A stretch of 64,000 bases of DNA from a virus: positions 1 through 64,000 of the IMG/VR virus record IMGVR_UViG_3300045988_161245; one strand, written 5' to 3'. The notes beneath the pieces were generated by a model. It worked only from the letters and a program-made list of their open reading frames with translations. It did no database searches and had not been told where the DNA came from. Made by a program: the position numbers and the translations under genes. How positions within the stretch are numbered: the first letter of the stretch is position 1; each line of letters starts with the position of its first letter. Below are positions 12,124 to 52,326 of this stretch, in pieces.

Positions 12124-12207
12124 ATGTTAAAGGAATTATTTAACAGCTGGAGCTTAATCTTCAGTATTATAGGTATAGTATTTGGTATTATCGCCAAATT
12201 ACTATAA
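12124..12207 (+). CDS. 27-aa hydrophobic peptide (type I toxin-like)
   Basis: AGGAG at 12113-12117, 6 nt before the ATG; MLKELFNSWSLIFSIIGIVFGIIAKLL; the only plus-strand ORF with both an RBS and a promoter. Confidence 0.5.
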   Translation: MLKELFNSWSLIFSIIGIVFGIIAKLL

Positions 12208-12681: not shown

Positions 12682-14868
12682 CTATTTCTCCTTGTAAAAC
12701 ATTTTTCTTAAAGTAACAATATCTCTTGGCAACTCATCAGCTTTACCATTTTCAAACTGTTTCTTGCACCAAGCGTAAAATTCTTTTGCTACCGGCGTAG
12801 TCAACAATGATGTCCTGTTTGTATAACCTTTCTTTAAAGTCTCATGAGCAATACCACGCATAAACTTCCAGAAATTGTAATATGTAAGTTTCAGCTTAAC
12901 CATATATCCATTAGCATCTTCGATTACAAATCCTTCGATCTTATCACCTCTGTACTCATAATCTTCTTCTAAAACCTCAAAATACCAATCATAAAATTCC
13001 TGCCATGTAGATAACTCATAAGCCTGTTTCTTGATTGTTAGTCCAAGATCACGACCAACATGTGCCATATCCTCATAATTGTATTTCTGGAAATCCAAAG
13101 TATTGTATACAATATCAAGCAAAACCAACTTACTTTCTGGATAATCAATAATATGTGGATCATGCTCCATGTCGCAGCATTCGAATACAAAAGAGACATC
13201 GTTCTCCTTAATATACTTCTTCATCTTTTTAAGATTCTCTTCAGAAATTTTCGTATAAACCATATCTCTCAGCCACTCAGAGAATTCACCTTCAGGATCA
13301 GACTTGCTTGTAATAAATAAGTCATCTGTATATTCATTCCAGGAAACAATTCCCAAAAATCCATTTTCTTTAACATAGGCAGCTACTGGGAATTTTAATG
13401 TACGTTGTAGTGTATCAAATTTAGTCTCTTCACGCTCGTTAACAGAAAAGAACTTTTCGTATGCCCTGGCTACTACTTTATACTTCTCAGAAGTATCCAG
13501 AAACAGACCTCTCGCTCTAATTGTTTGTGCGTTCCATTTCTTTTCATAAAATGCTGCTGGCGTAAAATTGAACGAAGAGATATTACCAAACTGCTTTTCA
13601 GAAATATATTTGTTGTTCCTCAAAGAGATAATTGCATCAGCAACATTACTTCCTAATGTATCTTCTACTTTTTCAGGCTCTCTGAATACATTGTTCTTAA
13701 CCTCATAGGATATACTTCCACCAGGAACAATATCAATACATCTCAGACAGCCACCAAACTCAACCTGTCCTTCCAAATCGTATACTCTTGGATTAACATT
13801 AATATCAAATCCTTTAGTATTTCTATGACCAAAAATCTGATAAGTATGTTCATCAGTAGTGGTGATAAATGTATCAGCAACTTGCTCTACATCGTTATAT
13901 CTACCAATTCCATGAATCATTTGATCGGTTGCAACAAAAGTAAGATTTTGTGGGATTGTACTCAGACCACCGTGAGTAACAAGATATGTATTTCCATGAT
14001 ATGTATAATAGGCACACTGAGCAAATTTTCTACACAGCTGCCGAAGATCTTTCTTACTGAAACCGGCTTTATCTAATGCAGGTTTTGTAAATAATTCAAA
14101 TTCTTTTGAAAATGACTTCTTATCTTCGCTATATTTCCTTAGATGAATTTCGTGATTGCCCTCAAGCAAAAGTACGTTTGGTTTATCCTTAATGCTTAAG
14201 AGAAACTGAACCACTTCCGCATTTTCAATTCCTCTGTCAATATAGTCTCCGCAAAATATAAAGAAGTGATCGTCCTTGATACCGCCAATTGCGTTCAAAT
14301 ATTTCTGTAAAGCTGTATTACAACCATGTATATCTCCTACGTGATGAATCACTTTATATTCGGACAAATCAATCTTTTTCATAAACACTTTATCAAGTTC
14401 TTCCGGCTTAATTACTGTAATACCGGACGGAATTCCCTGTGTCTTAAACCTACTATACATCTTATCAATAACAGCTTCAGGTACCTGTTTCATTGCAGCA
14501 CGAAGACTATTTCTTTTCTTACATTCCTCGATTGAAACATCTGTAAAATCAACAAGAAAAATTCTGTATCTATACTCCTGACATAATTTCTTATATTTGT
14601 TCATTTCAGAAGTCTTGGAATTAGTTGCATCTATAACTGTAAATTCTCCACGCTGCATTCTAACTTCCAGTAAGCTAAATAACGTCTTCCAAACAGTACC
14701 ATCATTACTCTGTGTAATCTCTGTGTTACCATTTGCAGATAATACCGGACTCTGACAGAGTAAACGAATATCATCTGCACATAATGTATATGGTTTTAAC
14801 CCATTTTTCTCAATATAAGTGCTCTTGCCAACTCCTGGAGCACCACGAAGTAATAATAAAGTTCTCAT
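12682..14868 (-). CDS. pnkp: Pnkp-type RNA repair enzyme: polynucleotide kinase / metallophosphatase / RNA ligase-like adenylyltransferase
   Basis: GAPGVGKST P-loop; GDIHGC, GDYIDRG, GNHE and THGG phosphoesterase motifs; C-terminal KENGF (motif I Lys), IEGFVIED and VKLKL ligase motifs, in the bacterial Pnkp domain order. Confidence 0.85.
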   Translation of the reverse strand: MRTLLLLRGAPGVGKSTYIEKNGLKPYTLCADDIRLLCQSPVLSANGNTEITQSNDGTVWKTLFSLLEVRMQRGEFTVIDATNSKTSEMNKYKKLCQEYRYRIFLVDFTDVSIEECKKRNSLRAAMKQVPEAVIDKMYSRFKTQGIPSGITVIKPEELDKVFMKKIDLSEYKVIHHVGDIHGCNTALQKYLNAIGGIKDDHFFIFCGDYIDRGIENAEVVQFLLSIKDKPNVLLLEGNHEIHLRKYSEDKKSFSKEFELFTKPALDKAGFSKKDLRQLCRKFAQCAYYTYHGNTYLVTHGGLSTIPQNLTFVATDQMIHGIGRYNDVEQVADTFITTTDEHTYQIFGHRNTKGFDINVNPRVYDLEGQVEFGGCLRCIDIVPGGSISYEVKNNVFREPEKVEDTLGSNVADAIISLRNNKYISEKQFGNISSFNFTPAAFYEKKWNAQTIRARGLFLDTSEKYKVVARAYEKFFSVNEREETKFDTLQRTLKFPVAAYVKENGFLGIVSWNEYTDDLFITSKSDPEGEFSEWLRDMVYTKISEENLKKMKKYIKENDVSFVFECCDMEHDPHIIDYPESKLVLLDIVYNTLDFQKYNYEDMAHVGRDLGLTIKKQAYELSTWQEFYDWYFEVLEEDYEYRGDKIEGFVIEDANGYMVKLKLTYYNFWKFMRGIAHETLKKGYTNRTSLLTTPVAKEFYAWCKKQFENGKADELPRDIVTLRKMFYKEK

Positions 14869-15511: not shown

Positions 15512-16375
15512 TCACTCTCCAACGAATACTAAATCATCAATATAGCGGCGATCTTCGCCTTTAAAAATAGAAATATTCTTATCTACCACCCATTTGGTTC
15601 GTGTAATATCATCTTGGGCATATTCTTTTTTTACACAGCAGCTTCCACGCTTTTTATAAGTTATAGAATCGTTCCAGTTGATACCTTTTTCAGTTAATAA
15701 CATATTTAAAATATCATTACATGATTTATTGTGTAGCTCTTTATGTGAAAAATTTGCTTGTCCAACCATTTGAATAGAGTTGCGTGTGGCATCGAGTTGT
15801 CTCCAGTAGAAATAATTTGTCACTTCTTCTTTCGGAATGTTAAAACATCTTGAGTCAAACATTGCTCTGTTACACTTAGAATAATATTTATCATAATATT
15901 CGTCTTCTAATTTATCAAACATAGGATCTGCTTCTTCAGAACTAATTTCTTTATTAGTAATTTTTTCATTAATCTTTGCACATTTTTCTTGAAAACTAAA
16001 TTCAACATTATCATAAAAGAACTTATTAAAAGCTAAAGTTGCCATACTTGCTGATATAGAACAAAGTTTCTGTACTTCATAATCAAACCAAGCTGCAGTA
16101 TCTAATTTTTTATAATCAATAAGTAGTAAAGATATTTCGTCAGACTGAGTATATCCAAGTACACAGCCCTCTATATTTTCACATAAATATTTCATTGTAT
16201 CCTGCATTGTTTTAACTAAAATATCATCAAAAGGTTTATCAAATGAGCGACAAAATGTGTGAAATGCCCTACCATCAATCCTCAGTATAACTGGGCATCT
16301 TCGTATTAATTTTGTCTTTGGAATCTGCTCATAATAGTCTTTCATTCTTTTACCAAGATCATCATTTACTGGCAT
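15512..16375 (-). CDS. Thg1-like protein (tRNA-His guanylyltransferase family 3'-5' polymerase)
   Basis: ILRIDGRAFHTF, YTQSDEISLL, FDSRCFNIP and YWRQLDATRNS match Thg1 blocks VVRLDGRNFHRF, YGQSDEYSFV, FDGRVVVYP and SWRQADCHINN. Confidence 0.85.
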   Translation of the reverse strand: MPVNDDLGKRMKDYYEQIPKTKLIRRCPVILRIDGRAFHTFCRSFDKPFDDILVKTMQDTMKYLCENIEGCVLGYTQSDEISLLLIDYKKLDTAAWFDYEVQKLCSISASMATLAFNKFFYDNVEFSFQEKCAKINEKITNKEISSEEADPMFDKLEDEYYDKYYSKCNRAMFDSRCFNIPKEEVTNYFYWRQLDATRNSIQMVGQANFSHKELHNKSCNDILNMLLTEKGINWNDSITYKKRGSCCVKKEYAQDDITRTKWVVDKNISIFKGEDRRYIDDLVFVGE

Positions 16376-21809: not shown

Positions 21810-22063
21810 ATTTCATTTGTATATGTAGAATTTGTTTTCTTATTTAAACCAGCAAATTTATTTATTATTGTTTCTAATTCGCAGTTTTCATCAAATGATA
21901 ACAAATTCTGTGTTAATATTTCTACTAATAGCCTTAATACATACTTAGTATCATCCACACTACAAGAAAATAGTTCAGGATCTTCTACAGATAAAAACAA
22001 TCTTGCGTACTGATCGGATGATGCTAAATTATATAATTCTCTTTTTAACTTTTCTTTATCCAT
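21800..22063 (-). CDS. hypothetical protein (87 aa)
   Basis: ORF track; overlaps both neighbours (translational coupling). Confidence 0.55.
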   Translation of the reverse strand: MDKEKLKRELYNLASSDQYARLFLSVEDPELFSCSVDDTKYVLRLLVEILTQNLLSFDENCELETIINKFAGLNKKTNSTYTNEICW

Positions 22064-23162
22064 CTTTATACCTCAAAATATCATTGTGTGTTTCACCATC
22101 TGATTTATAAATATTCCAGCCTGAGAATAACTTCCCAAATTTATCATCATCTATTCTAAATTCGTTGCAATGCGTAATAGTAATAGATCTTTCACACTCA
22201 AAATCTCCTACATCTGCTATAACTCTCTGATAAAGTTTATTTAAATCTAGTTTTCCATATCTCAAAGTATCCTGATGATGGTTTGGAACATTTGTCTTAT
22301 CATACATTTCGGCATTAATTTCGTCTTTATTGCATTCTGTTGGAAACGGACCAGCACCATGTCTGGTTAAATATGTACGTGTTACATAACATACTTCTAT
22401 ATTTAATTCATCATTCCAATTTACTCTTTCAATAATTTCTTTTGGATTTTTCAGACCTGTGTTAGATGGGGTAAGATGTGGAAAGTATTTTAGATTGTTC
22501 TGATCGAGTAATAACCCTTGAGCGGCTTCAAAAATAATGTGATCAAATATATTTAGAAAGCTTTCATCCCTGGTTGTCTCAATATGGTCATTCATAAAAT
22601 CTAAGTCTTCAAGAAAATGTTCGTATATTCCTTGGTCGTTAAATAATTTTTTCCAACTATCAGATAACACAATTCCTTCTTTTTCAAACTTCTCAAGGTA
22701 ATAATCTTTTACCTTATCAAAATCGGTAATGTCACTTTCATACCTCTTAATGGTTTCAAAAATTCCTAACCCACAACTGCCATGCTTTTGTTTTCCACGA
22801 TTTTCTTCAACAATATGATTTGCCATCATATCGTAAGGTGTTGAAACCATACAGTCTGAATGAACATAAACAATAGGAACTACACCTTTATTTATCAGTT
22901 CTTTAAATTCTTGAACGAAAATAAGTGGATTTACAATGAATTCTTTTGGCAAATATGTAACAGCCCCATTAAAAGTTCCAGAACCAAAATGATGAAAGAC
23001 ATGTCTGATTCCGTCCGGTGTCATTACGGTATGTCCTCTTTGACTTCCACCATTAGAACACACTACAATACTATTAGGTTTCTGTGAAAAGTAATCAGTC
23101 ATTAAACCTTTTCCTTCATCTCCTGCATTTGCACCAATCACAATCTTAATGTCTTTCATCAT
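22056..23162 (-). CDS. short adenylosuccinate synthetase (PurA/PurZ) family enzyme, substrate uncertain
   Basis: GANAGDEGKG, NGGSQRGHT, HHFGSG, GSCGLGI, EAAQGLLLD and TRHGAGPFPTE match PurA blocks; 368 aa; the canonical GxTTGRxRR loop is not recognisable. Confidence 0.75.
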   Translation of the reverse strand: MMKDIKIVIGANAGDEGKGLMTDYFSQKPNSIVVCSNGGSQRGHTVMTPDGIRHVFHHFGSGTFNGAVTYLPKEFIVNPLIFVQEFKELINKGVVPIVYVHSDCMVSTPYDMMANHIVEENRGKQKHGSCGLGIFETIKRYESDITDFDKVKDYYLEKFEKEGIVLSDSWKKLFNDQGIYEHFLEDLDFMNDHIETTRDESFLNIFDHIIFEAAQGLLLDQNNLKYFPHLTPSNTGLKNPKEIIERVNWNDELNIEVCYVTRTYLTRHGAGPFPTECNKDEINAEMYDKTNVPNHHQDTLRYGKLDLNKLYQRVIADVGDFECERSITITHCNEFRIDDDKFGKLFSGWNIYKSDGETHNDILRYKDG

Positions 23163-31892: not shown

Positions 31893-32996
31893 CTAAGCTA
31901 CTTTTAACATTTTCACTCCTTCATTTAGAATGTTAATTGCAGCATTTATATCACGATCATGATGCGTTCCACATTGTGGACAATCCCATTCACGAACTAA
32001 TAAATCTTTAGTCTGTTTATTTATATATCCGCACACATTGCAAGTCTGTGAACTTGCGAAGAATTTATCCACTTTTATAACATCTCTTCCGTACCAATCG
32101 GCTTTATATGTGAGCTGTCGTACAAATTCAGACCATGAAACATCAGCAATAGACCTTGCAAGCCTATGATTTTTAATCATGTTTTTTACTTGTAAATCTT
32201 CAATACAGATCACATCGTTGTTCCTGATAATCTCAGTAGATAATTTTTGTAGAAAATCTTTGCGCTGATTTGCAATATGCTCATGAAGTCTGGCAACTTT
32301 AATTCTTGCTTTATTACGATTTGAACCACCTTTCGATTTTCGAGATAGTTTTCTTTGCAATTTAGCAAGCTTGCATAATGACTTCCTAAGATATCTTGGA
32401 TTTTCAATCATTTCACCATCAGAAGTAATACAAAATTCTTTAATTCCAAGATCAATCCCAATTGAACTTCCAATCTTTTCTAATGGTTTTATATCTACGT
32501 CAGTACAACAGAGTGATACGAAATATTTTCCACTAGGCTCTTGTGATACAGTTGCATTAAGTATCCTGCCTTGTGGTATCAACTTGTTTTTCGTTTTTAC
32601 CATTCCAAGTTTAGGTAACTTAATATACTTATTACAATACTGAATATTCCCATTTACACATTTTGACTTATATGAATATCTATGTGTTTTCTTTGATTTA
32701 AATTTCGGATATCCTGTATGTTCTTTGAAGAATTTTTGATAAGCCGAATCTAAGTCTCTAAGCGAAGATTGAAGAGCAGTGGAATCAACTTCTTTAAGCC
32801 ATTTCAATTCAGTTTTAAGTTTTTTCATATCATTTGCACATTGCGCATATGCAAAAGTCTCTTTATTCTTTTCGTATATCTCAATTCTTTTTGCAAGATA
32901 TGTATTATATACAAATCTACAGTAACCAAATGTTTTGGCAATAATCTCTCTTTGTTTCTTGTTTGGATATATTCTATATTTGTAAGCTTTTTCCAC
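31893..32996 (-). CDS. tnpB: TnpB (IS605 OrfB family RNA-guided endonuclease)
   Basis: [11 protein letters not shown]-terminus; GIDLGIKEF (RuvC-I D), [10 protein letters not shown] (E), CNVCG...CPQCG zinc finger, [11 protein letters not shown] (RuvC-III D). Confidence 0.9.
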
Positions 32997-34651: not shown

Positions 34652-36253
34652 TTACGCTGTCTTATTTTCTTTATATGTCAAATATGAATTAAAATCTTCT
34701 TTCATATCATCGAGAAGTTTCTGTACATCATTCTCTGGTTTTGTACACTGGAAAGCGTAATCTTTAAACCAATTAAGAGCATCTGTATTTGTATCGTTGT
34801 CATATGTATATTTTACGAATCCTACCATTGCAGGAACGTATTTTGCCTTGAGAAGTGTAGTACCGGCTGGAAGCTCCAGACTCCATTCATTCACTTCATC
34901 AAGATACAGATCCACATCTTCAATATTATCTTCTGTATATTCATCAGCAGTGATAAATTCCTGAATTGCCTTATCAGAGAAATTTGTCTTTCCACATACT
35001 GCCATAAGTGTCTGTGCAGCAATACGATCAATATCACTTCCCATTGGAATACCAAGTGCTTCCATTAACTCTGTGTTCTCAAACTTTGTTGCAAATGCAT
35101 CAAATCTGTCTGTTGTCTCAAAAGATTCAACAATATCTTCCTTATTAATAGAAAAGAAATCCATCATAAGAGATTCAAGATACTCTAATTTGCCAAAGAT
35201 TGTATTTCTGTTCTTTGTAGATTTATTTCCCTTAATTTCATCGAAAGATTCTCCATTAATTTTGGTTTCTCTTAACCCACCAATAAATGCCTCTAAAAAC
35301 TCTTTAAACTTAGAATCATCCATTTCAAGTTTTGAGAATTTATCGAATAAAGCAATCCACATTGGCGCATCTTTTTTCTCAAAAAGTTTTGAAAGTTCAT
35401 CGTTGTCTTCAACTAATGCATACATTCTTCCAAGATAGTTATCGAGAAGATTAAACTGTTCTTTTTCACCATTTGTTTCCACATACAAAGCATTTTTCTC
35501 TGCATTACTTTTCCATTCATCTTTAAAAAAGATAATCATTACAGTATCAAGCATTACTCTCTCTGGATCACTGTTCTTTTCAGAAGCTCCATGATAACAC
35601 GGAAGCTCTTTAAAGAATGGATTGGAACTCATAATTTCTTTTGTCCATTTTGCAGTCTGTTCCATATATGTAACGGATTTCTGATTTTTATTCATACTCT
35701 TCTGATTGTTATATCTTCGAATATGATAACCCATTCTACTTTCTGTACAGTTTGAATGCTCTACATAAATTACTTTGTAATTATTAAATCTTTCCTTAAG
35801 CTCCATAGGAAGATCTTTATAACGTTTTCCACGAAGATCAAACTCTAACTCTTCCATAATTGGATAGCCATCTTCATCTTTAACTACATTTCCGTTTTCA
35901 TCCTTTTTTGCTGACTCGTATGGAACAATGTAATTTTCAAGATTTTTCCCAAGAGCAAACACATTATTATAGAAATTATTCCATGTTTCAAATCTGTTTC
36001 CACCATCTACAATCCACTTTTGAGATGGTTTGCCTTCTCGAATTTCTTCACAGATTTTTACTGGATCAATATCTTCACCTTGTACAGTTGTTACAATTGC
36101 CTGGTCACGAATCTGATTATTCCACTGAGTAGATTTTCTCTGCAGCCAAAAGTCTCTTCTAATTTCACCTCTATCCAACTTACCAAGAAGAGTCTTAAGA
36201 AATTTCTGATCTCTTACCATTTTTTCGTTTTTGTTTGGTCTGATACATAACAT
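34652..36253 (-). CDS. DUF262/ParB-like nuclease-domain protein (533 aa)
   Basis: N-terminal LQRKSTQW...IVTTVQGEDIDPV...WIVDGGNRFETW fits the DUF262 pattern (QR..vW ... DGqQR..T); no His-Me/DUF1524 motif seen at the C-terminus. Confidence 0.5.
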   Translation of the reverse strand: MLCIRPNKNEKMVRDQKFLKTLLGKLDRGEIRRDFWLQRKSTQWNNQIRDQAIVTTVQGEDIDPVKICEEIREGKPSQKWIVDGGNRFETWNNFYNNVFALGKNLENYIVPYESAKKDENGNVVKDEDGYPIMEELEFDLRGKRYKDLPMELKERFNNYKVIYVEHSNCTESRMGYHIRRYNNQKSMNKNQKSVTYMEQTAKWTKEIMSSNPFFKELPCYHGASEKNSDPERVMLDTVMIIFFKDEWKSNAEKNALYVETNGEKEQFNLLDNYLGRMYALVEDNDELSKLFEKKDAPMWIALFDKFSKLEMDDSKFKEFLEAFIGGLRETKINGESFDEIKGNKSTKNRNTIFGKLEYLESLMMDFFSINKEDIVESFETTDRFDAFATKFENTELMEALGIPMGSDIDRIAAQTLMAVCGKTNFSDKAIQEFITADEYTEDNIEDVDLYLDEVNEWSLELPAGTTLLKAKYVPAMVGFVKYTYDNDTNTDALNWFKDYAFQCTKPENDVQKLLDDMKEDFNSYLTYKENKTA

Positions 36254-36255
36254 AA

Positions 36256-36945
36256 TTAGTCTTCCTCCAATGCTAATCTAAATTCTGAAGTTCTCATATC
36301 GGTTACATAATCAAAATACTGTTTGTTAGTAAGTTGCAATCTCTCTTGAATCTCATTTGGTTTATAACCATCAATCATCAGAGAAACTATTTTCTTTTGT
36401 GTTTTATTGAGTTTGTTAATACATGCTTCTAATTTTGATGCTTTTTTATTCGAAAAAATAATGTCTTCAACATCTTTTTCACATTGAATTGTGTCTGCAT
36501 ATGTAATATCTGAATCAGAGTCTATTTTGTCATAGATACTGACAGTTTTTACTCTCACGCTTTTTTTGACTTTTTCGCCATTTTCATCACGTTTTTCAGG
36601 GTCCCAATTTCCGTCACCACCACGCTTAAGAGAATTAATTCCATAAATATAGCTGATAAATTTCTTTTGCATATACGGATAAACATATGCTCTAAACGGT
36701 CCTGTAGTTGGATCATAAGACTCCAGGCAAAATGTGATAATATATCCTGCTAAAGATTCAAAATCATCTCTGTAATAATCTGGAATATCATTCCAAATTA
36801 TATGAAGTATCTGGTTGCAAAGTTTTTTAAGCTCCTTTCCTTTGTCTTTGTAGAAAAAGTCAACTATGTTATTGACCTCATCTTCTGTAAGTTTCTCATT
36901 CTTACTCCATTTCTCTGATCCCATAATTTTCATTCTGCCACTCAA
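36256..36945 (-). CDS. sigma-70 family-like transcription factor (TTG start; 5' end uncertain)
   Basis: Region-2-like FESLAGYIITFCLESYDP..GPFRAYVYPYMQKKF and region-4-like LNKTQKKIVSLMIDGYKPNEIQERLQLT; the frame stays open upstream to 37098. Confidence 0.5.
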   Translation of the reverse strand: MSGRMKIMGSEKWSKNEKLTEDEVNNIVDFFYKDKGKELKKLCNQILHIIWNDIPDYYRDDFESLAGYIITFCLESYDPTTGPFRAYVYPYMQKKFISYIYGINSLKRGGDGNWDPEKRDENGEKVKKSVRVKTVSIYDKIDSDSDITYADTIQCEKDVEDIIFSNKKASKLEACINKLNKTQKKIVSLMIDGYKPNEIQERLQLTNKQYFDYVTDMRTSEFRLALEED

Positions 36946-37114
36946 AATATGAACAAAATATCCATATCGAGAATTGAAATCCTCACGGATATTTCTTACT
37001 GCTTCATTGTATATGCTTTCATGGTTATTTAACTCACTACTCGCAGATCCTTGTATACTCCACAGTCGTAAATTCCCGACTAAGCCATCGGTACATACTT
37101 ACTTTTGCTTTTAT

Positions 37115-38287
37115 TTATGCAATTTCGTAAGCTATCGCATCTCTTAAATTAAGTGCTGCATTATAATCTCTATCAGCATAATATCCACATTCGCAAATAT
37201 ATTCTCTGTCAGAAAGTTTTAAATCTTTCTTAATACATCCACATTCGTGACATAATTTGCTTGATGGAAACCACCGATCCACAATTCTTAATTCGATTCC
37301 TAATTCTTTGCATTTTTCAATAAGCTTTAATCTGAACTCATAAAACTTCTGTGATGCAACTGCTTTAGAGAGATGTTTATTCTTCATCATTCCTTTTATA
37401 TTAAGATCTTCAATAGTTATATAAGATGGTTTGGTTTTCACTATCTCTGTTATTGTTTTATTAATATAATCGGTTCGAATATTAGTTATTCTTTGATAAA
37501 TTTTCTGTACCTTTAAAACTTGTTTTTGAATATTCTGTTTAGTAGCTGCTCCTTTATTGTTTTTGTTTCGTTGTTTATAACTTTCGTATTTTCTCGAAAG
37601 ACAACGTTGTTCTCTTTTTAATTTCTTTTTTAGCTTTTTAAATTTTTTTGTTTTATTAATATTTTTCTTTACAGTACCATCGCTTATTACTGCAAATTCC
37701 TTTATACCTAGATCAATTCCTAAACCAAAATCATTTAAAATAGCTTTATCTTGTTCTGGAACATCAACTAAAACAGAAATATAATATCTTTCTGCTTTCA
37801 TAGATATAGTTCCACTTTTAATTACTAATCCTGATTTAGTTGTTGGAATATAACCATTTTCTTTAAGCCTGACCCAACCTAATGTAGGAACTTTTATACG
37901 ATGCCTTTCACACCATATAACCGACTTACTATCGGTTTTTACAAAATACATTTTTACATCAGATTTGTTTTTCTTTTTAAATTTGGGGAATTTACTTTGA
38001 TTTTTGAAGAATCGTTTAAAAGATTTGTCTGCATTCATTATGCTTTGCTTGACAGATTTGGAGCTTACTTCTTTTATCCATAGATAATTAGGATTTTCTT
38101 TTAGGAATACATTATTTAACCATTTAGAAAAATCCATTCCTGAAACAAATATTTTTTCTTTTTTATACATCTCTATATTATGTGCAATATAGAAATTATA
38201 AATGTATCTACATGTCCCAATAGTTTTATTTATTATTTGTTTCTGCTCCAATGTCGGATTTATCTCCGTTTTGAAGCTTTTTAGCAT
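37115..38287 (-). CDS. tnpB: TnpB (RNA-guided endonuclease, IS607-associated type)
   Basis: KTEINPTLEQKQ N-terminus; [24 protein letters not shown]...CECG zinc finger, ADRDYNAALNL; GGAGG upstream of ATG 38287. Confidence 0.9.
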   Translation of the reverse strand: MLKSFKTEINPTLEQKQIINKTIGTCRYIYNFYIAHNIEMYKKEKIFVSGMDFSKWLNNVFLKENPNYLWIKEVSSKSVKQSIMNADKSFKRFFKNQSKFPKFKKKNKSDVKMYFVKTDSKSVIWCERHRIKVPTLGWVRLKENGYIPTTKSGLVIKSGTISMKAERYYISVLVDVPEQDKAILNDFGLGIDLGIKEFAVISDGTVKKNINKTKKFKKLKKKLKREQRCLSRKYESYKQRNKNNKGAATKQNIQKQVLKVQKIYQRITNIRTDYINKTITEIVKTKPSYITIEDLNIKGMMKNKHLSKAVASQKFYEFRLKLIEKCKELGIELRIVDRWFPSSKLCHECGCIKKDLKLSDREYICECGYYADRDYNAALNLRDAIAYEIA

Positions 38288-38480
38288 TCACGTCCTCCTT
38301 ATTTTGATTTACACCTTTAAATTGCAAATAATGTTCATAAGTATAATATCTTCTATTAGTAGGAGTACGATTTGCTATTAAGATTCCTGCTCTATCCCAA
38401 CGCTGCAATGTTTTTACAGATACATTTAACAATTCAGCAAATTCTCTTGGTTTATAGTTAGTGATATTTTTTGTGTTCAT
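38226..38480 (-). CDS. MerR/excisionase-type HTH protein (truncated IS607 TnpA N-terminal domain or Xis-like)
   Basis: YKPREFAELLNVSVKTLQRWDRAGIL HTH; 84 aa; AAGGAGG upstream; overlaps the tnpB start by 62 nt. Confidence 0.6.
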   Translation of the reverse strand: MNTKNITNYKPREFAELLNVSVKTLQRWDRAGILIANRTPTNRRYYTYEHYLQFKGVNQNKEDVNAKKLQNGDKSDIGAETNNK

Positions 38481-38503
38481 AATATCGTCCTCCTTATGAA
38501 CAC

Positions 38504-38532
38504 ATTATAACACTTTTGTACACATTTATCTA
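38504..38532 (-). promoter_or_regulatory. promoter with extended -10 (TGTTATAAT) for the HTH-tnpB unit
   Basis: TGTTATAAT read on the minus strand at 38512-38504; weak -35. Confidence 0.4.
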
Positions 38533-38719
38533 CATTTTTTTCATTCTCCCTTTACATTTGAATTTTGCGTATACTAAATACACTATTCGCTTCTAAAAAG
38601 AGAATGAAATTATTCTTAAAAAGATAACAATTCCATTTTTAGCAAATAGCATATTTAATATACAGTTATACTCACGGAATTTCTCTTACAGAATGGCAAG
38701 AGATTAGAATTGGAAAATA

Positions 38720-38748
38720 TTGACATTTCCATTGAATTGCTACATAAT
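38720..38748 (+). promoter_or_regulatory. promoter TTGACA-17 nt-CATAAT
   Basis: Consensus -35 at 38720-38725 and -10 at 38743-38748; no ORF with an RBS follows before the terminator. Confidence 0.5.
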
Positions 38749-38774
38749 ATGTATGTATCCATCCGTGGGTACAG

Positions 38775-38830
38775 AAAACCCTGTCCTATCAGCTGACGGT
38801 CGCCAAACTTTCTGCTGGTAGGGCATTTTT
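38775..38830. terminator. bidirectional rho-independent terminator
   Basis: CCCT(bulge)ATCAGC ... GCTGGTAGGG stem flanked by AAAA on the left and ATTTTT on the right, giving a U-run on either strand. Confidence 0.45.
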
Positions 38831-38859
38831 CTTTATAAGATCAATGTCGATTAAAAATC

Positions 38860-38873
38860 AGAACATTTGTTCT
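38860..38873. promoter_or_regulatory. LexA (Cheo) box-like palindrome AGAACATTTGTTCT
   Basis: GAAC-N4-GTTC core, just downstream of the minus-strand TGGTATAAT box. Confidence 0.55.
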
Positions 38874-38885
38874 TTTATGTATTTG

Positions 38886-38894
38886 ATTATACCA
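38886..38894 (-). promoter_or_regulatory. extended -10 promoter element TGGTATAAT
   Basis: Read directly on the minus strand; flanked by the two LexA-box-like palindromes. Confidence 0.5.
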
Positions 38895-38916
38895 CTTTAT
38901 CGTACCAATAAAAAGG

Positions 38917-38922
38917 TATAAT
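38917..38922 (+). promoter_or_regulatory. possible divergent -10 box TATAAT
   Basis: Mirror image of the 38886-38894 box; the LexA box begins 11 nt downstream; poor -35. Confidence 0.3.
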
Positions 38923-38932
38923 TTAACATTTT

Positions 38933-38946
38933 CGAACTTTTGTTCG
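38933..38946. promoter_or_regulatory. LexA (Cheo) box CGAACTTTTGTTCG
   Basis: Full match to the Gram-positive SOS-box core CGAAC-N4-GTTCG; followed by a direct repeat TTGTTCGAT x2. Confidence 0.65.
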
Positions 38947-38958
38947 ATTTTTGTTCGA

Positions 38959-39219
38959 TCAGAATAGAATAACAATAGAGCTACATGGAGAAAATTTGAA
39001 TTTCCCTTTGATTCCATGTAGCTCTATCTTCCTGATATATTCAGAATCGCTATAAGTAATAGTCTTTGCATTCTGAATATTTTTCTCCACCCTCCTCTTG
39101 CCAATTTTTTTAGATTTTGAAGATATACCTTTTTTCTTGTTATAGTACATTGCACAAACTTTACTTCCTACAATCCCTTTTATAAGTTCCATTGCCTCCA
39201 CCTTATTTAATTCGCACAT
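38959..39219 (-). CDS. very basic 86-aa ORF downstream of the toxin gene (doubtful)
   Basis: ORF track; overlaps mazF by 13 nt, but its last ~22 codons are encoded by the terminator hairpin. Confidence 0.3.
   Translation of the reverse strand: MCELNKVEAMELIKGIVGSKVCAMYYNKKKGISSKSKKIGKRRVEKNIQNAKTITYSDSEYIRKIELHGIKGKFKFSPCSSIVILF
38976..39026 (-). terminator. terminator hairpin of the toxin unit
   Basis: Perfect 14-bp inverted repeat TAGAGCTACATGGA/TCCATGTAGCTCTA with a 23-nt loop, followed by a T-rich tract on the minus strand. Confidence 0.55.
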
Positions 39220-43650: not shown

Positions 43651-44673
43651 TTAATCATCTCCATATAAATCTTCTACTGCGTCAGCAATTTCTCTTCTCT
43701 GCTGAACTGTATCATCCAAATATTTCTGTGTTGCTGCTAAACTCTTTTGTCCAAGTAATTGCTGTACCGCTCTAGCATTACCGGTTTTTAAATAATAATT
43801 CGTTCCGGTTGAACTACGCATTGTATGTGGGACAATTCTTTTTTCTTTATTAATGTCACCGGCATATGCTCTTAGTATCCTTCCAACTGTTTTTTGAGAA
43901 ATTCTACCAGACTTATTTGAAATAAATAGCGCAGGACTTTCTACTCCATTTTCTCTAACATATTCATTTCGCTTCTGAACCCAACTTTGAAGTATCTTAA
44001 TTGTACCATCACTGAGGCGGACATGCCTTGGTTTATTTCCCTTTTCAATAACACTCAAAGACTTGTCTTCCCAATTAATATCATCAATATTAATTGATAT
44101 TATTGCAGAAACACGCAGAGCCTTGTGGAATCCAAGGTTAATTATAGCTTCGTCTCTCTCATTCCACTGAGAAAGATATAATCTACTTCTTTTAGTGTTT
44201 CCGGAAGATACATTTTTTTCAATCTCTTTTACCTCATCAACATCTAGGTATACTTTTTTCTTCATTCTCTCATTACTTGGAGTTTTAATTTTTCTCATTG
44301 GATTTTTACTGATATGATCCCCATCTTCCAAAAACTTAAAAAAGCAATTTAAAGAAAAATATCTAATATATTTATAAGAATCAGAAATTTTTCCATTTTT
44401 CATAATTATATGATTATCATCGTCTACAATATACTTTCTTATAGTTTCTATATTTAATCTTCCAATATCATCTATAGTTTCCGTTGGATATCCAGAATCT
44501 TTTAGATAATGTACTAACCTTATTACATTATTGATATAATTTAATCGTGTCTTTGCTGTTTTATCATCTGCAATCATAAATACATTAAACAATTCCATGT
44601 ATTCTGGTTCATTTTTTAGGAGCCGATTAATGTTATTTATATACTTAACTTCAATCTCCATTCTACCTATCAT
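43651..44673 (-). CDS. int: tyrosine recombinase / phage integrase (XerC/D-like)
   Basis: N-terminal SAM-like domain; HKALRVSAI (R), HTMRSSTGT (H-x-x-R), LGQKSLAATQKYL (catalytic Y). Confidence 0.85.
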   Translation of the reverse strand: MIGRMEIEVKYINNINRLLKNEPEYMELFNVFMIADDKTAKTRLNYINNVIRLVHYLKDSGYPTETIDDIGRLNIETIRKYIVDDDNHIIMKNGKISDSYKYIRYFSLNCFFKFLEDGDHISKNPMRKIKTPSNERMKKKVYLDVDEVKEIEKNVSSGNTKRSRLYLSQWNERDEAIINLGFHKALRVSAIISINIDDINWEDKSLSVIEKGNKPRHVRLSDGTIKILQSWVQKRNEYVRENGVESPALFISNKSGRISQKTVGRILRAYAGDINKEKRIVPHTMRSSTGTNYYLKTGNARAVQQLLGQKSLAATQKYLDDTVQQRREIADAVEDLYGDD

Positions 44674-51897: not shown

Positions 51898-52326
51898 CTA
51901 CATAAACATTAGATATTCTTCATATGTAACTTCTGGGATTATATTTATTAAAAATTTTATTAACTCTTCTCCATTATATTTGGATTTTGCATAATCAATA
52001 ATATTTTCTAATACATCCCAGTTCCAATGTGTATCAATTACTCCTGGAAATTCTTCCTTTATATAATCTAGTAATCCATCTTTATCAATTGATTTATTTG
52101 TTGATTTGCTGTTTTGTGATATAACCCTAAATGCCCTTGCTTCTCCAGGATGTTCTGTTTCAAATCTACCATTTCTAAATAATCGTTGCATATGTCTATG
52201 TACGACTGATGTACTACTAAGCCCAACTCCCTTTCCGATTTCTCTTATTGTTGGAGCGTAACCATGCTCATCTATGTAAGACTTACAAAAATCATATATT
52301 TTTTCTGTTGTTTTATAATATTTCAT
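51898..52326 (-). CDS. LexA-like DNA-binding-domain protein lacking the S24 peptidase domain
   Basis: HGYAPTIREIGKGVGLSSTSVVHRHMQRL...ARAFRVI parallels LexA [29 protein letters not shown]...PRAIEIL; no GDSM/Ser-Lys dyad in the 70-aa tail. Confidence 0.7.
   Translation of the reverse strand: MKYYKTTEKIYDFCKSYIDEHGYAPTIREIGKGVGLSSTSVVHRHMQRLFRNGRFETEHPGEARAFRVISQNSKSTNKSIDKDGLLDYIKEEFPGVIDTHWNWDVLENIIDYAKSKYNGEELIKFLINIIPEVTYEEYLMFM

Follow-up and report, generated by a model that had tools for sequence, protein, structure and literature searches.

Two kinds of regulatory system are closest to the locus described here. In the first, LexA-type repressors act on phage promoters. The LexA operator consensus of Gram-positive bacteria is GAAC-N4-GTTC, and clostridia also use GAAC-N4-GTTT (PMC4234289). 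In phage GIL01, host LexA represses phage promoters, and gp6, a truncated LexA homologue encoded by the phage, activates the LexA-repressed late promoter P3. The second is the antisense control of plasmid replication, for which the ColIb-P9 Inc RNA system is an example; a UUGGCG loop motif is named in the title of a study of that system (Asano et al. 1998). We analysed a 64,000-nt stretch of viral DNA (positions 1 to 64,000 of IMG/VR record IMGVR_UViG_3300045988_161245; hereafter the window) and in it an intergenic region around 38720-39030 (the hub), which a first-pass annotation of the sequence had singled out for two LexA boxes and facing promoters. The hub is probably the regulatory region of a phage sigma-like gene, in which a LexA-boxed promoter is combined with a kissing-loop antisense RNA. 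The elements concerned are the following; P(-) and P(+) denote the minus- and plus-strand promoters.

38933-38946: box 1, a LexA/Cheo-type palindrome CGAAC-N4-GTTCG, CGAACTTTTGTTCG, centred at about -60 from the predicted minus-strand start
38860-38873: box 2, a palindrome AGAAC-N4-GTTCT, AGAACATTTGTTCT, at about +6 to +19 of P(-), a repressor position
38894-38886, minus strand: P(-), an extended -10 promoter, TGGTATAAT, with a predicted start at about 38878-38880
38538-38879, minus strand: structured 5' leader of the sigma-like gene, about 345 nt, cut from the gene by an insertion in this genome
36256-36924, minus strand: sigma-70-family gene of the extracytoplasmic function (ECF)-like type, 222 aa, the gene fed by the hub in insertion-free relatives
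38720-38748, plus strand: P(+), TTGACA-17-CATAAT, matching 11 of 12 consensus positions
38755-38834, plus strand: predicted antisense small RNA (sRNA) of about 80 nt, with a 5' hairpin (38755-38772), a terminator hairpin (38782-38825) and a U-tract (38826-38834)
38797-38810, plus strand: conserved loop CGGU-CGCCAA-ACUU (…CGGUCGCCAAACUU…), with its complement GUUUGGCGAC on the gene-sense leader

Results

The hub natively precedes a sigma-like gene

The locus was compared with eight close relatives (L001-L007 and L028), of which the six IMG/VR ones without the insertion described below are contigs of 187-222 kb, and with distant loci (L016-L038) gathered through homologues of the sigma-like protein at 55-79% identity. 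On the minus strand of the window, a PemK/MazF gene is followed by an overlapping 86-aa gene, a gap, a MerR helix-turn-helix (HTH) remnant and tnpB with a RAGATH-18 motif, the 222-aa sigma-like gene and a 533-aa gene. The first-pass annotation had placed the hub between the toxin unit and the HTH-tnpB unit, which is correct for this genome but not for the native locus, as the latter unit belongs to an insertion:

36937-38537, minus strand: IS607-like insertion of 1.6 kb, with AGAATGAAAA at both junctions
38226-38480: MerR-HTH remnant within the insertion
37115-38287: tnpB within the insertion
36996-37066: RAGATH-18 omega-RNA motif within the insertion

This element is absent in six of the eight close relatives (L001-L006) and shared by L007 and L028. 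In the six, the alignment with the window runs from 40300 to about 38538 and resumes at about 36939. The insertion has entered the leader of the sigma-like gene 3 nt before the start codon and thereby separates the ATG from the Shine-Dalgarno sequence. Going by these alignments, the HTH-tnpB element is a recent insertion, and natively the hub stands directly upstream of the sigma-like gene. The order PemK, 86-aa gene, gap of about 430 nt, sigma-like gene and gene of about 533 aa is kept in the relatives; L023 lacks both PemK and the 86-aa gene and retains the gap. A DNA-damage (SOS)-controlled read-through into HTH-tnpB, which had also been suggested, is physically in place here, solely through the recent insertion into the leader.

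Four lines of evidence concur that the 222-aa protein, as judged by profile and structure comparison, is a sigma-70-family factor. It has weak hits to Sigma70_r4_2 and to a PHROG sigma-factor family, a profile search of the PDB returned sigma-H region 2 and FliA region 4 in the correct order, and the top Foldseek hits of its AlphaFold model (pLDDT 64) are almost all sigma factors, mostly of the ECF type. Furthermore, a homologue that is 26% identical (tblastn; hhalign probability 99.3%) passes the Pfam cutoff for Sigma70_r2 and has additional r3 and r4 hits. It is encoded on L026, a phage-like 197-kb contig in a metagenome-assembled genome labelled 'uncultured Eubacteriales', where the downstream gene is 32% identical to the 533-aa gene of the window and syntenic with it. 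Upstream of the L026 sigma-like gene (2848-2899) we found AGAACAGATGTTCG, then 10 nt, then TTGACA-AAATCGAACATCTGTTC-TATACT, i.e. two perfect boxes, one abutting the -35 element and the other filling the 17-nt promoter spacer, and no antisense hairpin. No other single result is as strong: since this promoter carries boxes, LexA-box control seems to be an old trait of the sigma-like gene family, and one that does not depend on the other parts of the hub.

Two LexA-type operators flank the minus-strand promoter

Both boxes are present where the first-pass annotation had seen them, and both match the Gram-positive LexA (SOS/Cheo) operator palindrome exactly, in agreement with the B. subtilis and clostridial consensus. 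Three copies of the motif GAAC-N4-GTTC are found in 64 kb, where 0.40 would be expected, and none of 100 shuffles reached three; the third copy (57131) lies within an open reading frame (ORF), which leaves the hub as the only boxed site of the window and bears out the earlier view that the pair is beyond chance. A search of the window allowing one mismatch gave no enrichment (19 hits versus 13.6 expected). In the relatives' loci (6.6-8.4 kb each), the motif is likewise restricted to the hub. Conservation in related phages had been set beforehand as a test of the boxes, and they persist across the whole range of sigma-like protein identities sampled. Box 1 is kept as CGAAC-N4-GTTC(G/T) in all relatives with the PemK/86-aa cassette, whereas box 2, the more conserved of the two, is found in all relatives, L023 included. 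Sequence changes are concentrated in the N4 spacers. Most relatives have the boxes 73 bp apart (about 7 helical turns); the distance is 63 bp (about 6 turns) in L024 and 96 bp (about 9 turns) in L021, each near a whole number of turns. As expected of operators, both overlap or flank a promoter, box 2 just downstream of the P(-) start and box 1 well upstream. By sequence, the boxes look like functional operators of the LexA type: they are conserved, they flank a promoter and the window has no other such pair. One further element adjoins them:

38953-38957: GTTCG half-site, 11 bp from box 1, the second copy of the TTGTTCGAT direct repeat

The direct repeat had been noted before and is indeed present. 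The half-site, of uncertain significance, appears as (C/A/T)(G/A)AAC in most lineages and is deleted in the L001/L017/L025 group.

At the position of P(-), the diverged relatives have TTGACA-17-TAAAGT (L021), TTGACA-17-TAATAT (L024) and TTGTCA-17-TATAAT (L023). Because these lineages substitute other hexamers at the same position, the promoter is conserved in place: on this comparison its function is conserved while its sequence is turning over. The plus-strand TATAAT at 38917-38922, described earlier as back-to-back with P(-), is a different case. Both -10 sequences exist, but the plus-strand one decays in relatives to GATAAT, TATAAG or GATAAA, or is deleted. An antisense control of the toxin unit through this weak hexamer, as once envisaged, loses its basis with it.

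It is important to consider which protein would bind the boxes, since the window itself encodes a candidate:

51898-52326, minus strand: phage LexA homologue of 142 aa, a LexA DNA-binding domain only, without S24 peptidase; candidate binder

This protein is recognised by Pfam LexA_DNA_bind (E = 7.6e-14), matches LexA structures in the PDB and, since the S24 peptidase domain is missing, should be unable to self-cleave. Compared with the GIL01 homologue it has an extra C-terminal domain of about 70 aa. The boxes might therefore be operators of this non-cleavable homologue instead of host LexA, and serve as a developmental early/late timer during infection rather than as a sensor of SOS, or the phage protein might act there as an activator or competitor, like GIL01 gp6 at P3. 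We regard this as rather unlikely, though it is the best of the alternatives. The recognition helix (GLSSTSVVHRHM) is common to the full-length LexA-type proteins P0061 and P0076, short homologues with only the DNA-binding domain are common, and GIL01 likewise combines LexA-boxed promoters with a truncated LexA homologue of its own, which there acts as an activator; moreover, -60 is a classic activator position for the centre of box 1. On the other hand, no box was found near the phage lexA-like gene or elsewhere in the 64 kb apart from the hub and 57131, and it is box 2, in the repressor position, that is the better conserved. Binding of the phage protein would also be compatible with binding of host LexA.

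A predicted plus-strand antisense RNA with a kissing-loop terminator

The plus-strand promoter TTGACA-17-CATAAT was confirmed. Its hexamers (TTGACA and C/TATAAT) are invariant among the relatives while the spacer sequence varies, with a spacer length of 17 nt in all but L023 (18 nt). The plus-strand RNA at 38753-38842 folds with -33.9 kcal/mol (z = -5.8), and five pairs of the 11-bp terminator stem show compensatory changes. Its complement, the minus-strand RNA, reaches only -20.6 kcal/mol (z = -1.2) and contains two C.A mismatches. The plus strand is the folded one, because G.U pairs of the stem become C.A mismatches on the other strand. A plus-strand sRNA ending at the hairpin, predicted earlier at about 75 nt and here at about 80 nt, is thus very likely real, given the invariant promoter hexamers, the strand-specific fold and the covarying stem. 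Judged by sequence only, it has the attributes of an antisense RNA, i.e. its own promoter and terminator and full overlap with the leader of its target. In agreement with the earlier report that neither RNA holds an ORF with a ribosome-binding site, no small ORF is conserved; two candidates, of 28 aa (38740-38826) and 35 aa (38655-38762), were rejected as genes as their start codons are lost in relatives.

P(+) is separated from the nearest box by more than 110 nt, and its spacer contains no box in the clade of this phage. In L018, L020 and L024 a third LexA-box-like palindrome is located within the P(+) spacer (e.g. TTGACATTT-CGAACTTGCGTTTG-TATAAT), which would place the sRNA of these phages under the same repressor.

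CGCCAA (38801-38806) sits in the apical loop of the terminator hairpin, and this loop is conserved far more strongly than the stems. The antisense strand displays 5'-CGCCAA-3' and the leader 5'-UUGGCG-3', two complementary loops, and UUGG constitutes a YUNR U-turn. For comparison, the loop of IncK RNAI, as read from published primer sequences, is CCCGCCAAAG. By its motif, the hub loop is of the CopA/Inc-RNA kissing-loop type. In L018 and L023, the loop of about 15 nt is exactly reverse-complemented, while the promoter, the G.U-bearing stems and the U-tract remain on the unchanged strand. The L018-type inverted loop was seen in three independent assemblies (L018 2600-2760, L019 and L037), that of L023 is at 2700-2800, and the loop is still conserved after the inversion. 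The reversal looks as if the DNA between the stem arms had been inverted. It would be tolerated because the sense/antisense pair stays complementary and one partner keeps the U-turn. Kissing would therefore account for the conservation of the loop, the cis-antisense position and the tolerated inversion.

An exact scan of IMG/VR for the 14-mer of the loop yielded more than 120 contigs, 120 of which were examined (L041-L160). In 34 of them the 14-mer forms the loop of a stem of at least 8 bp, compared with 37 of 2400 control positions. These amount to 27 distinct hairpins with 23 different inner stems, on contigs with a GC content of 32-60%. A T-run follows on the CGCCAA strand in 11 of the 27 versus none on the opposite strand, and 20 have a -10-like hexamer 15-70 nt upstream, compared with 6 in the mirror control. 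At many of these loci a divergent gene starts 27-100 nt upstream, so that the 5' part or promoter of the sRNA overlaps its ribosome-binding site or 5' untranslated region (UTR). By eye, these genes encode serine and tyrosine integrases, Bro/KilA-type antirepressors, replication proteins and a MuB-like ATPase. A streptococcal version is found, unannotated, beside the integrase gene in 252 Streptococcus phage records (e.g. FR671407.1 36068-36171); against the Rfam family RF02589 (Spy779816) it scores 41.4 bits, below the gathering score of 67 bits. The window RNA reaches 19.7 bits (E = 2) with this family and does not qualify as a member. At gathering scores, Rfam detects nothing in the hub, RAGATH-18 inside the insertion being the sole match; up to E = 10, the hub gave chance-level matches and this weak Spy779816 lead. 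No Rfam family covers the other, non-streptococcal 14-mer hairpins. At the nucleotide level the hub matched none of 50,697 GenBank phages, an exact search for the 39-nt hairpin in IMG/VR found nothing, and a literature search by the loop sequence gave only primer coincidences.

We tentatively regard the hub sRNA as one of a large group of cis-antisense RNAs of phages that has gone almost entirely without annotation, an assignment for which the chances may be slightly less than even. Members of the group would carry an intrinsic terminator with a near-invariant CopA/Inc-type kissing loop of about 14 nt (UCGGUCGCCAAACUU), span streptococcal prophages, gut phages of about 215 kb and high-GC phages, and gate integrases, antirepressors, replication proteins and, in this case, a LexA-boxed sigma factor; by inversion, the loop could move from the antisense to the sense strand without loss of function (L018, L023).

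That the 14-nt loop is identical among phages whose hosts differ greatly in GC content could also mean a common partner in trans, either an RNA or a FinO/ProQ-type chaperone. The plus-strand RNA would then be mainly a trans-acting phage sRNA that engages a target in the host or the phage through its loop as a seed. Alternatively, the hairpin might be an insulating terminator that shields the boxed promoter from convergent transcription, for it stops the sRNA about 40 nt before the P(-) start site. We consider both improbable. A loop that is reverse-complemented and yet conserved in L018 and L023 is incompatible with a fixed trans target and is what one expects of a sense/antisense pair in cis; in other phages the sRNA overlaps the translation start region of the divergent gene, as described above, and the window contains no second match to the loop. 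The only other CGCCAA-loop hairpin in the window, a 7-bp AT-rich one at 12192 inside a small ORF, was rejected.

The gene-sense transcript is a long structured leader

The leader of L001 folds with -99.7 kcal/mol (z = -6.4). The consensus structure of the leader comprises 69 pairs, of which 93% of the cells are paired, compared with 35-44% when the partners are slid. Double changes affect 22 pairs as opposed to 3-8 in slid alignments, and none of 500 shuffles reached the observed values. Many of these pairs are G.U, hence the structure is specific to the gene-sense RNA. It includes a 21-bp helix (38642-38663 with 38569-38590) and a covarying long-range helix (38758-38772 with 38668-38679). The first segment of the latter is complementary to the 5' hairpin of the sRNA, which implies that binding of the sRNA must displace an intramolecular pairing.

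According to the first-pass annotation, the hub would encode a minus-strand RNA of about 100 nt and a plus-strand RNA of about 75 nt that overlap, end at a shared bidirectional terminator and are both SOS-controlled. Both promoters exist, and in the window GGGUUUUCUGU does follow the hairpin on the minus strand. This model nevertheless appears very unlikely. A bidirectional intrinsic terminator requires a stable hairpin and a U-tract on both strands; the RNA folding gave the weak, mismatched minus-strand hairpin reported above, and most relatives lack a T-run on the gene-sense side. Because strongly covarying structure runs past the hairpin up to the sigma start codon, the minus-strand transcript is best taken as the beginning of the leader of about 345 nt and not as an RNA of about 100 nt. 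The SOS control of a pair of sRNAs is also at odds with the distance of P(+) from any box. Finally, a DNA-level role of the inverted repeat as a recombination, replication or packaging site, which the conservation of its core in both orientations and an integrase gene about 5 kb upstream might suggest, can practically be dismissed, as the G.U-specific stems, the one-sided T-runs and the -10-like hexamers at a fixed distance indicate a transcribed terminator hairpin, and as the hairpin accompanies serine integrases, tyrosine integrases and non-recombinase genes alike.

Neighbouring genes and other features of the window

The genes on either side of the hub and the sigma-like gene are:

39647-39207, minus strand: PemK/MazF toxin gene, 146 aa (Pfam E = 1e-23)
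38959-39219, minus strand: 86-aa protein gene, overlapping the mazF stop codon, with an AAGGAGG ribosome-binding site
34652-36253, minus strand: 533-aa gene following the sigma-like gene, with a WIVDGGNR motif, DUF262/GmrSD_N-like

The 86-aa ORF is intact in all eight close relatives, where substitutions are mostly synonymous (12 nucleotide versus 3 amino-acid changes in L006), and gene calling recovered it independently in every distant relative with PemK. The statement that 38720-39030 lacks coding capacity consequently fails for 38959-39030, which is part of this gene. A 12-bp palindrome at 38980-39026 was rejected as a terminator of the mazF operon; it lies within coding sequence, and the two substitutions in it are synonymous while disrupting the pairing. 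PemK and the 86-aa gene are absent together from L023, which points to a cassette of two genes, perhaps a toxin and a partner arranged in reversed order. The PemK/MazF protein has an unusually long C-terminus, and the 86-aa protein is basic and conserved, with no family match. The L026 homologue of the 533-aa protein matches GmrSD_N (DUF262; E = 1e-5), and a sigma factor beside a ParB/DUF262-like protein is an unusual pairing.

The window has a GC content of about 31% and carries almost all of its genes on the minus strand; the phage belongs to a size class of about 215 kb. Its tyrosine integrase gene (43651-44673) is the one lying about 5 kb upstream of the hub; L020, L021, L023 and L024 have a tyrosine integrase a few kb upstream of the hub as well, in addition to HicA-like toxins. 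A scan of GTDB (185,579 reference genomes) revealed no integrated copy of the phage, only two distant homologues. Elsewhere in the window, a small plus-strand ORF at 12124-12207 (MLKELFNSWSLIFSIIGIVFGIIAKLL), opposite to all its neighbours, has a ribosome-binding site (GAAAGGAG) and a promoter-like TGTGGTACAAT upstream, and resembles a type I toxin or another small membrane peptide. An RNA ligase/kinase-phosphatase fusion (12682-14868), a tRNA-His guanylyltransferase (15512-16375), a PurZ-like adenylosuccinate synthetase homologue (22056-23162) and a second tnpB (31893-32996) are also encoded; the PurZ-like homologue hints at a 2-aminoadenine genome.

Discussion

From these elements we propose the following mode of action. 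Judging from the positions of the operators, a pair of LexA-family dimers would occupy both and shut off the host-type (sigma-A) promoter P(-). Whenever P(-) fires, it would yield the structured leader of about 345 nt, whose first hairpin would display the 5'-UUGGCG-3' loop. The near-consensus P(+) would constitutively supply the antisense sRNA of about 80 nt, whose terminator hairpin would display 5'-CGCCAA-3'. Both RNAs may meet by loop-loop kissing and then zip up, as do ColIb-P9 Inc RNA/repZ and R1 CopA/CopT. The duplex would displace the conserved long-range helix of the leader and could silence leaky sigma mRNA, either by refolding or by duplex cleavage. Strong firing of the boxed promoter, in turn, would transcribe across P(+) and titrate the sRNA, presumably resulting in a sharp threshold.

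Several observations weigh against this proposal. The palindromes in the P(+) spacers of L018, L020 and L024 do not fit a simple constitutive antisense RNA. On the gene-sense strand, there is no terminator between the upstream mazF and 86-aa genes and the hub, so that read-through could feed the leader. Neither an attenuator terminator in the leader nor, by inspection, a downstream CGCCAA partner that could form a ColIb-P9-style pseudoknot with the UUGGCG loop was found. The covariation tests of the hub draw on only about nine distinct hub sequences. Finally, the insertion splits the leader in this genome, in L007 and in L028, and yet the phage persists; tight leader control may be dispensable or rerouted in these genomes.

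If the proposal is correct, a gut phage of about 215 kb with an integrase puts its own sigma factor under double control, by a pair of DNA-damage-type (LexA) operators and by an antisense RNA of the plasmid kissing-loop kind. Both forms of control are known singly, and we found no description of their combination on a phage sigma gene. Moreover, hairpins with this loop stand beside decision genes in many unrelated phages and are almost never annotated (34 of 120 IMG/VR contigs in addition to the 252 Streptococcus records). With one covariance model it could become possible to find lysis/lysogeny or early/late control points in the genomes of uncultured phages, and the natural inversion of the loop allows one to test whether the U-turn may sit on either partner.

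Compared with described systems, the hub resembles ColIb-P9 Inc RNA/repZ, IncB/IncK RNAI and R1 CopA/CopT in that a short constitutive antisense RNA lies opposite the leader of a key gene, with CGCCAA on the antisense RNA and the UUGGCG U-turn on the target, as in the plasmid copy-control RNAs. As in ColIb-P9, antisense binding would compete with a long-range pairing in the leader, if the title of the relevant report may be taken as a guide (Asano & Mizobuchi 1998). There are also clear differences. The target is a phage sigma gene and not a replication initiator (repA/repZ), the kissing loop is built into the intrinsic terminator of the sRNA itself, the motif extends over about 14-15 nt, the leader has neither a recognisable pseudoknot partner nor a leader peptide, and the host bacteria are presumably of the Firmicutes type rather than enterobacteria. 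Hence, as read from its sequence, the hub would work like the copy-control RNA family, yet it is not a member of the plasmid copy-control family. RF02589, named for the Streptococcus pyogenes small RNA Spy779816, has the same terminator loop (GUCGCCAAAC) and a two-hairpin layout, and streptococcal prophage copies of the Spy779816-like hairpin adjoin the integrase gene. The stems and the 5' hairpin of the hub, however, are unrelated to this narrow Rfam family.

With GIL01 of Bacillus thuringiensis (LexA/gp7/gp6, P1 and P3), the locus shares phage promoters with multiple Gram-positive LexA boxes and a phage-encoded truncated LexA homologue that is essentially a DNA-binding domain. Whereas GIL01 is a linear tectivirus of 15 kb with no known antisense RNA partner, the phage studied here has about 215 kb and an integrase, and the controlled gene is a sigma factor. 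In this last respect it is reminiscent of uviA on the Clostridium perfringens plasmid pIP404, whose control by LexA was reportedly described by Dupuy et al. in 2005. Like UviA, the sigma-like protein is a mobile-element-encoded sigma-70-family factor in clostridia behind a DNA-damage-responsive promoter, if the boxes act as proposed. Unlike UviA, it is not detectably TcdR-like, and its gene has, in addition, a predicted antisense RNA layer and a long structured leader.

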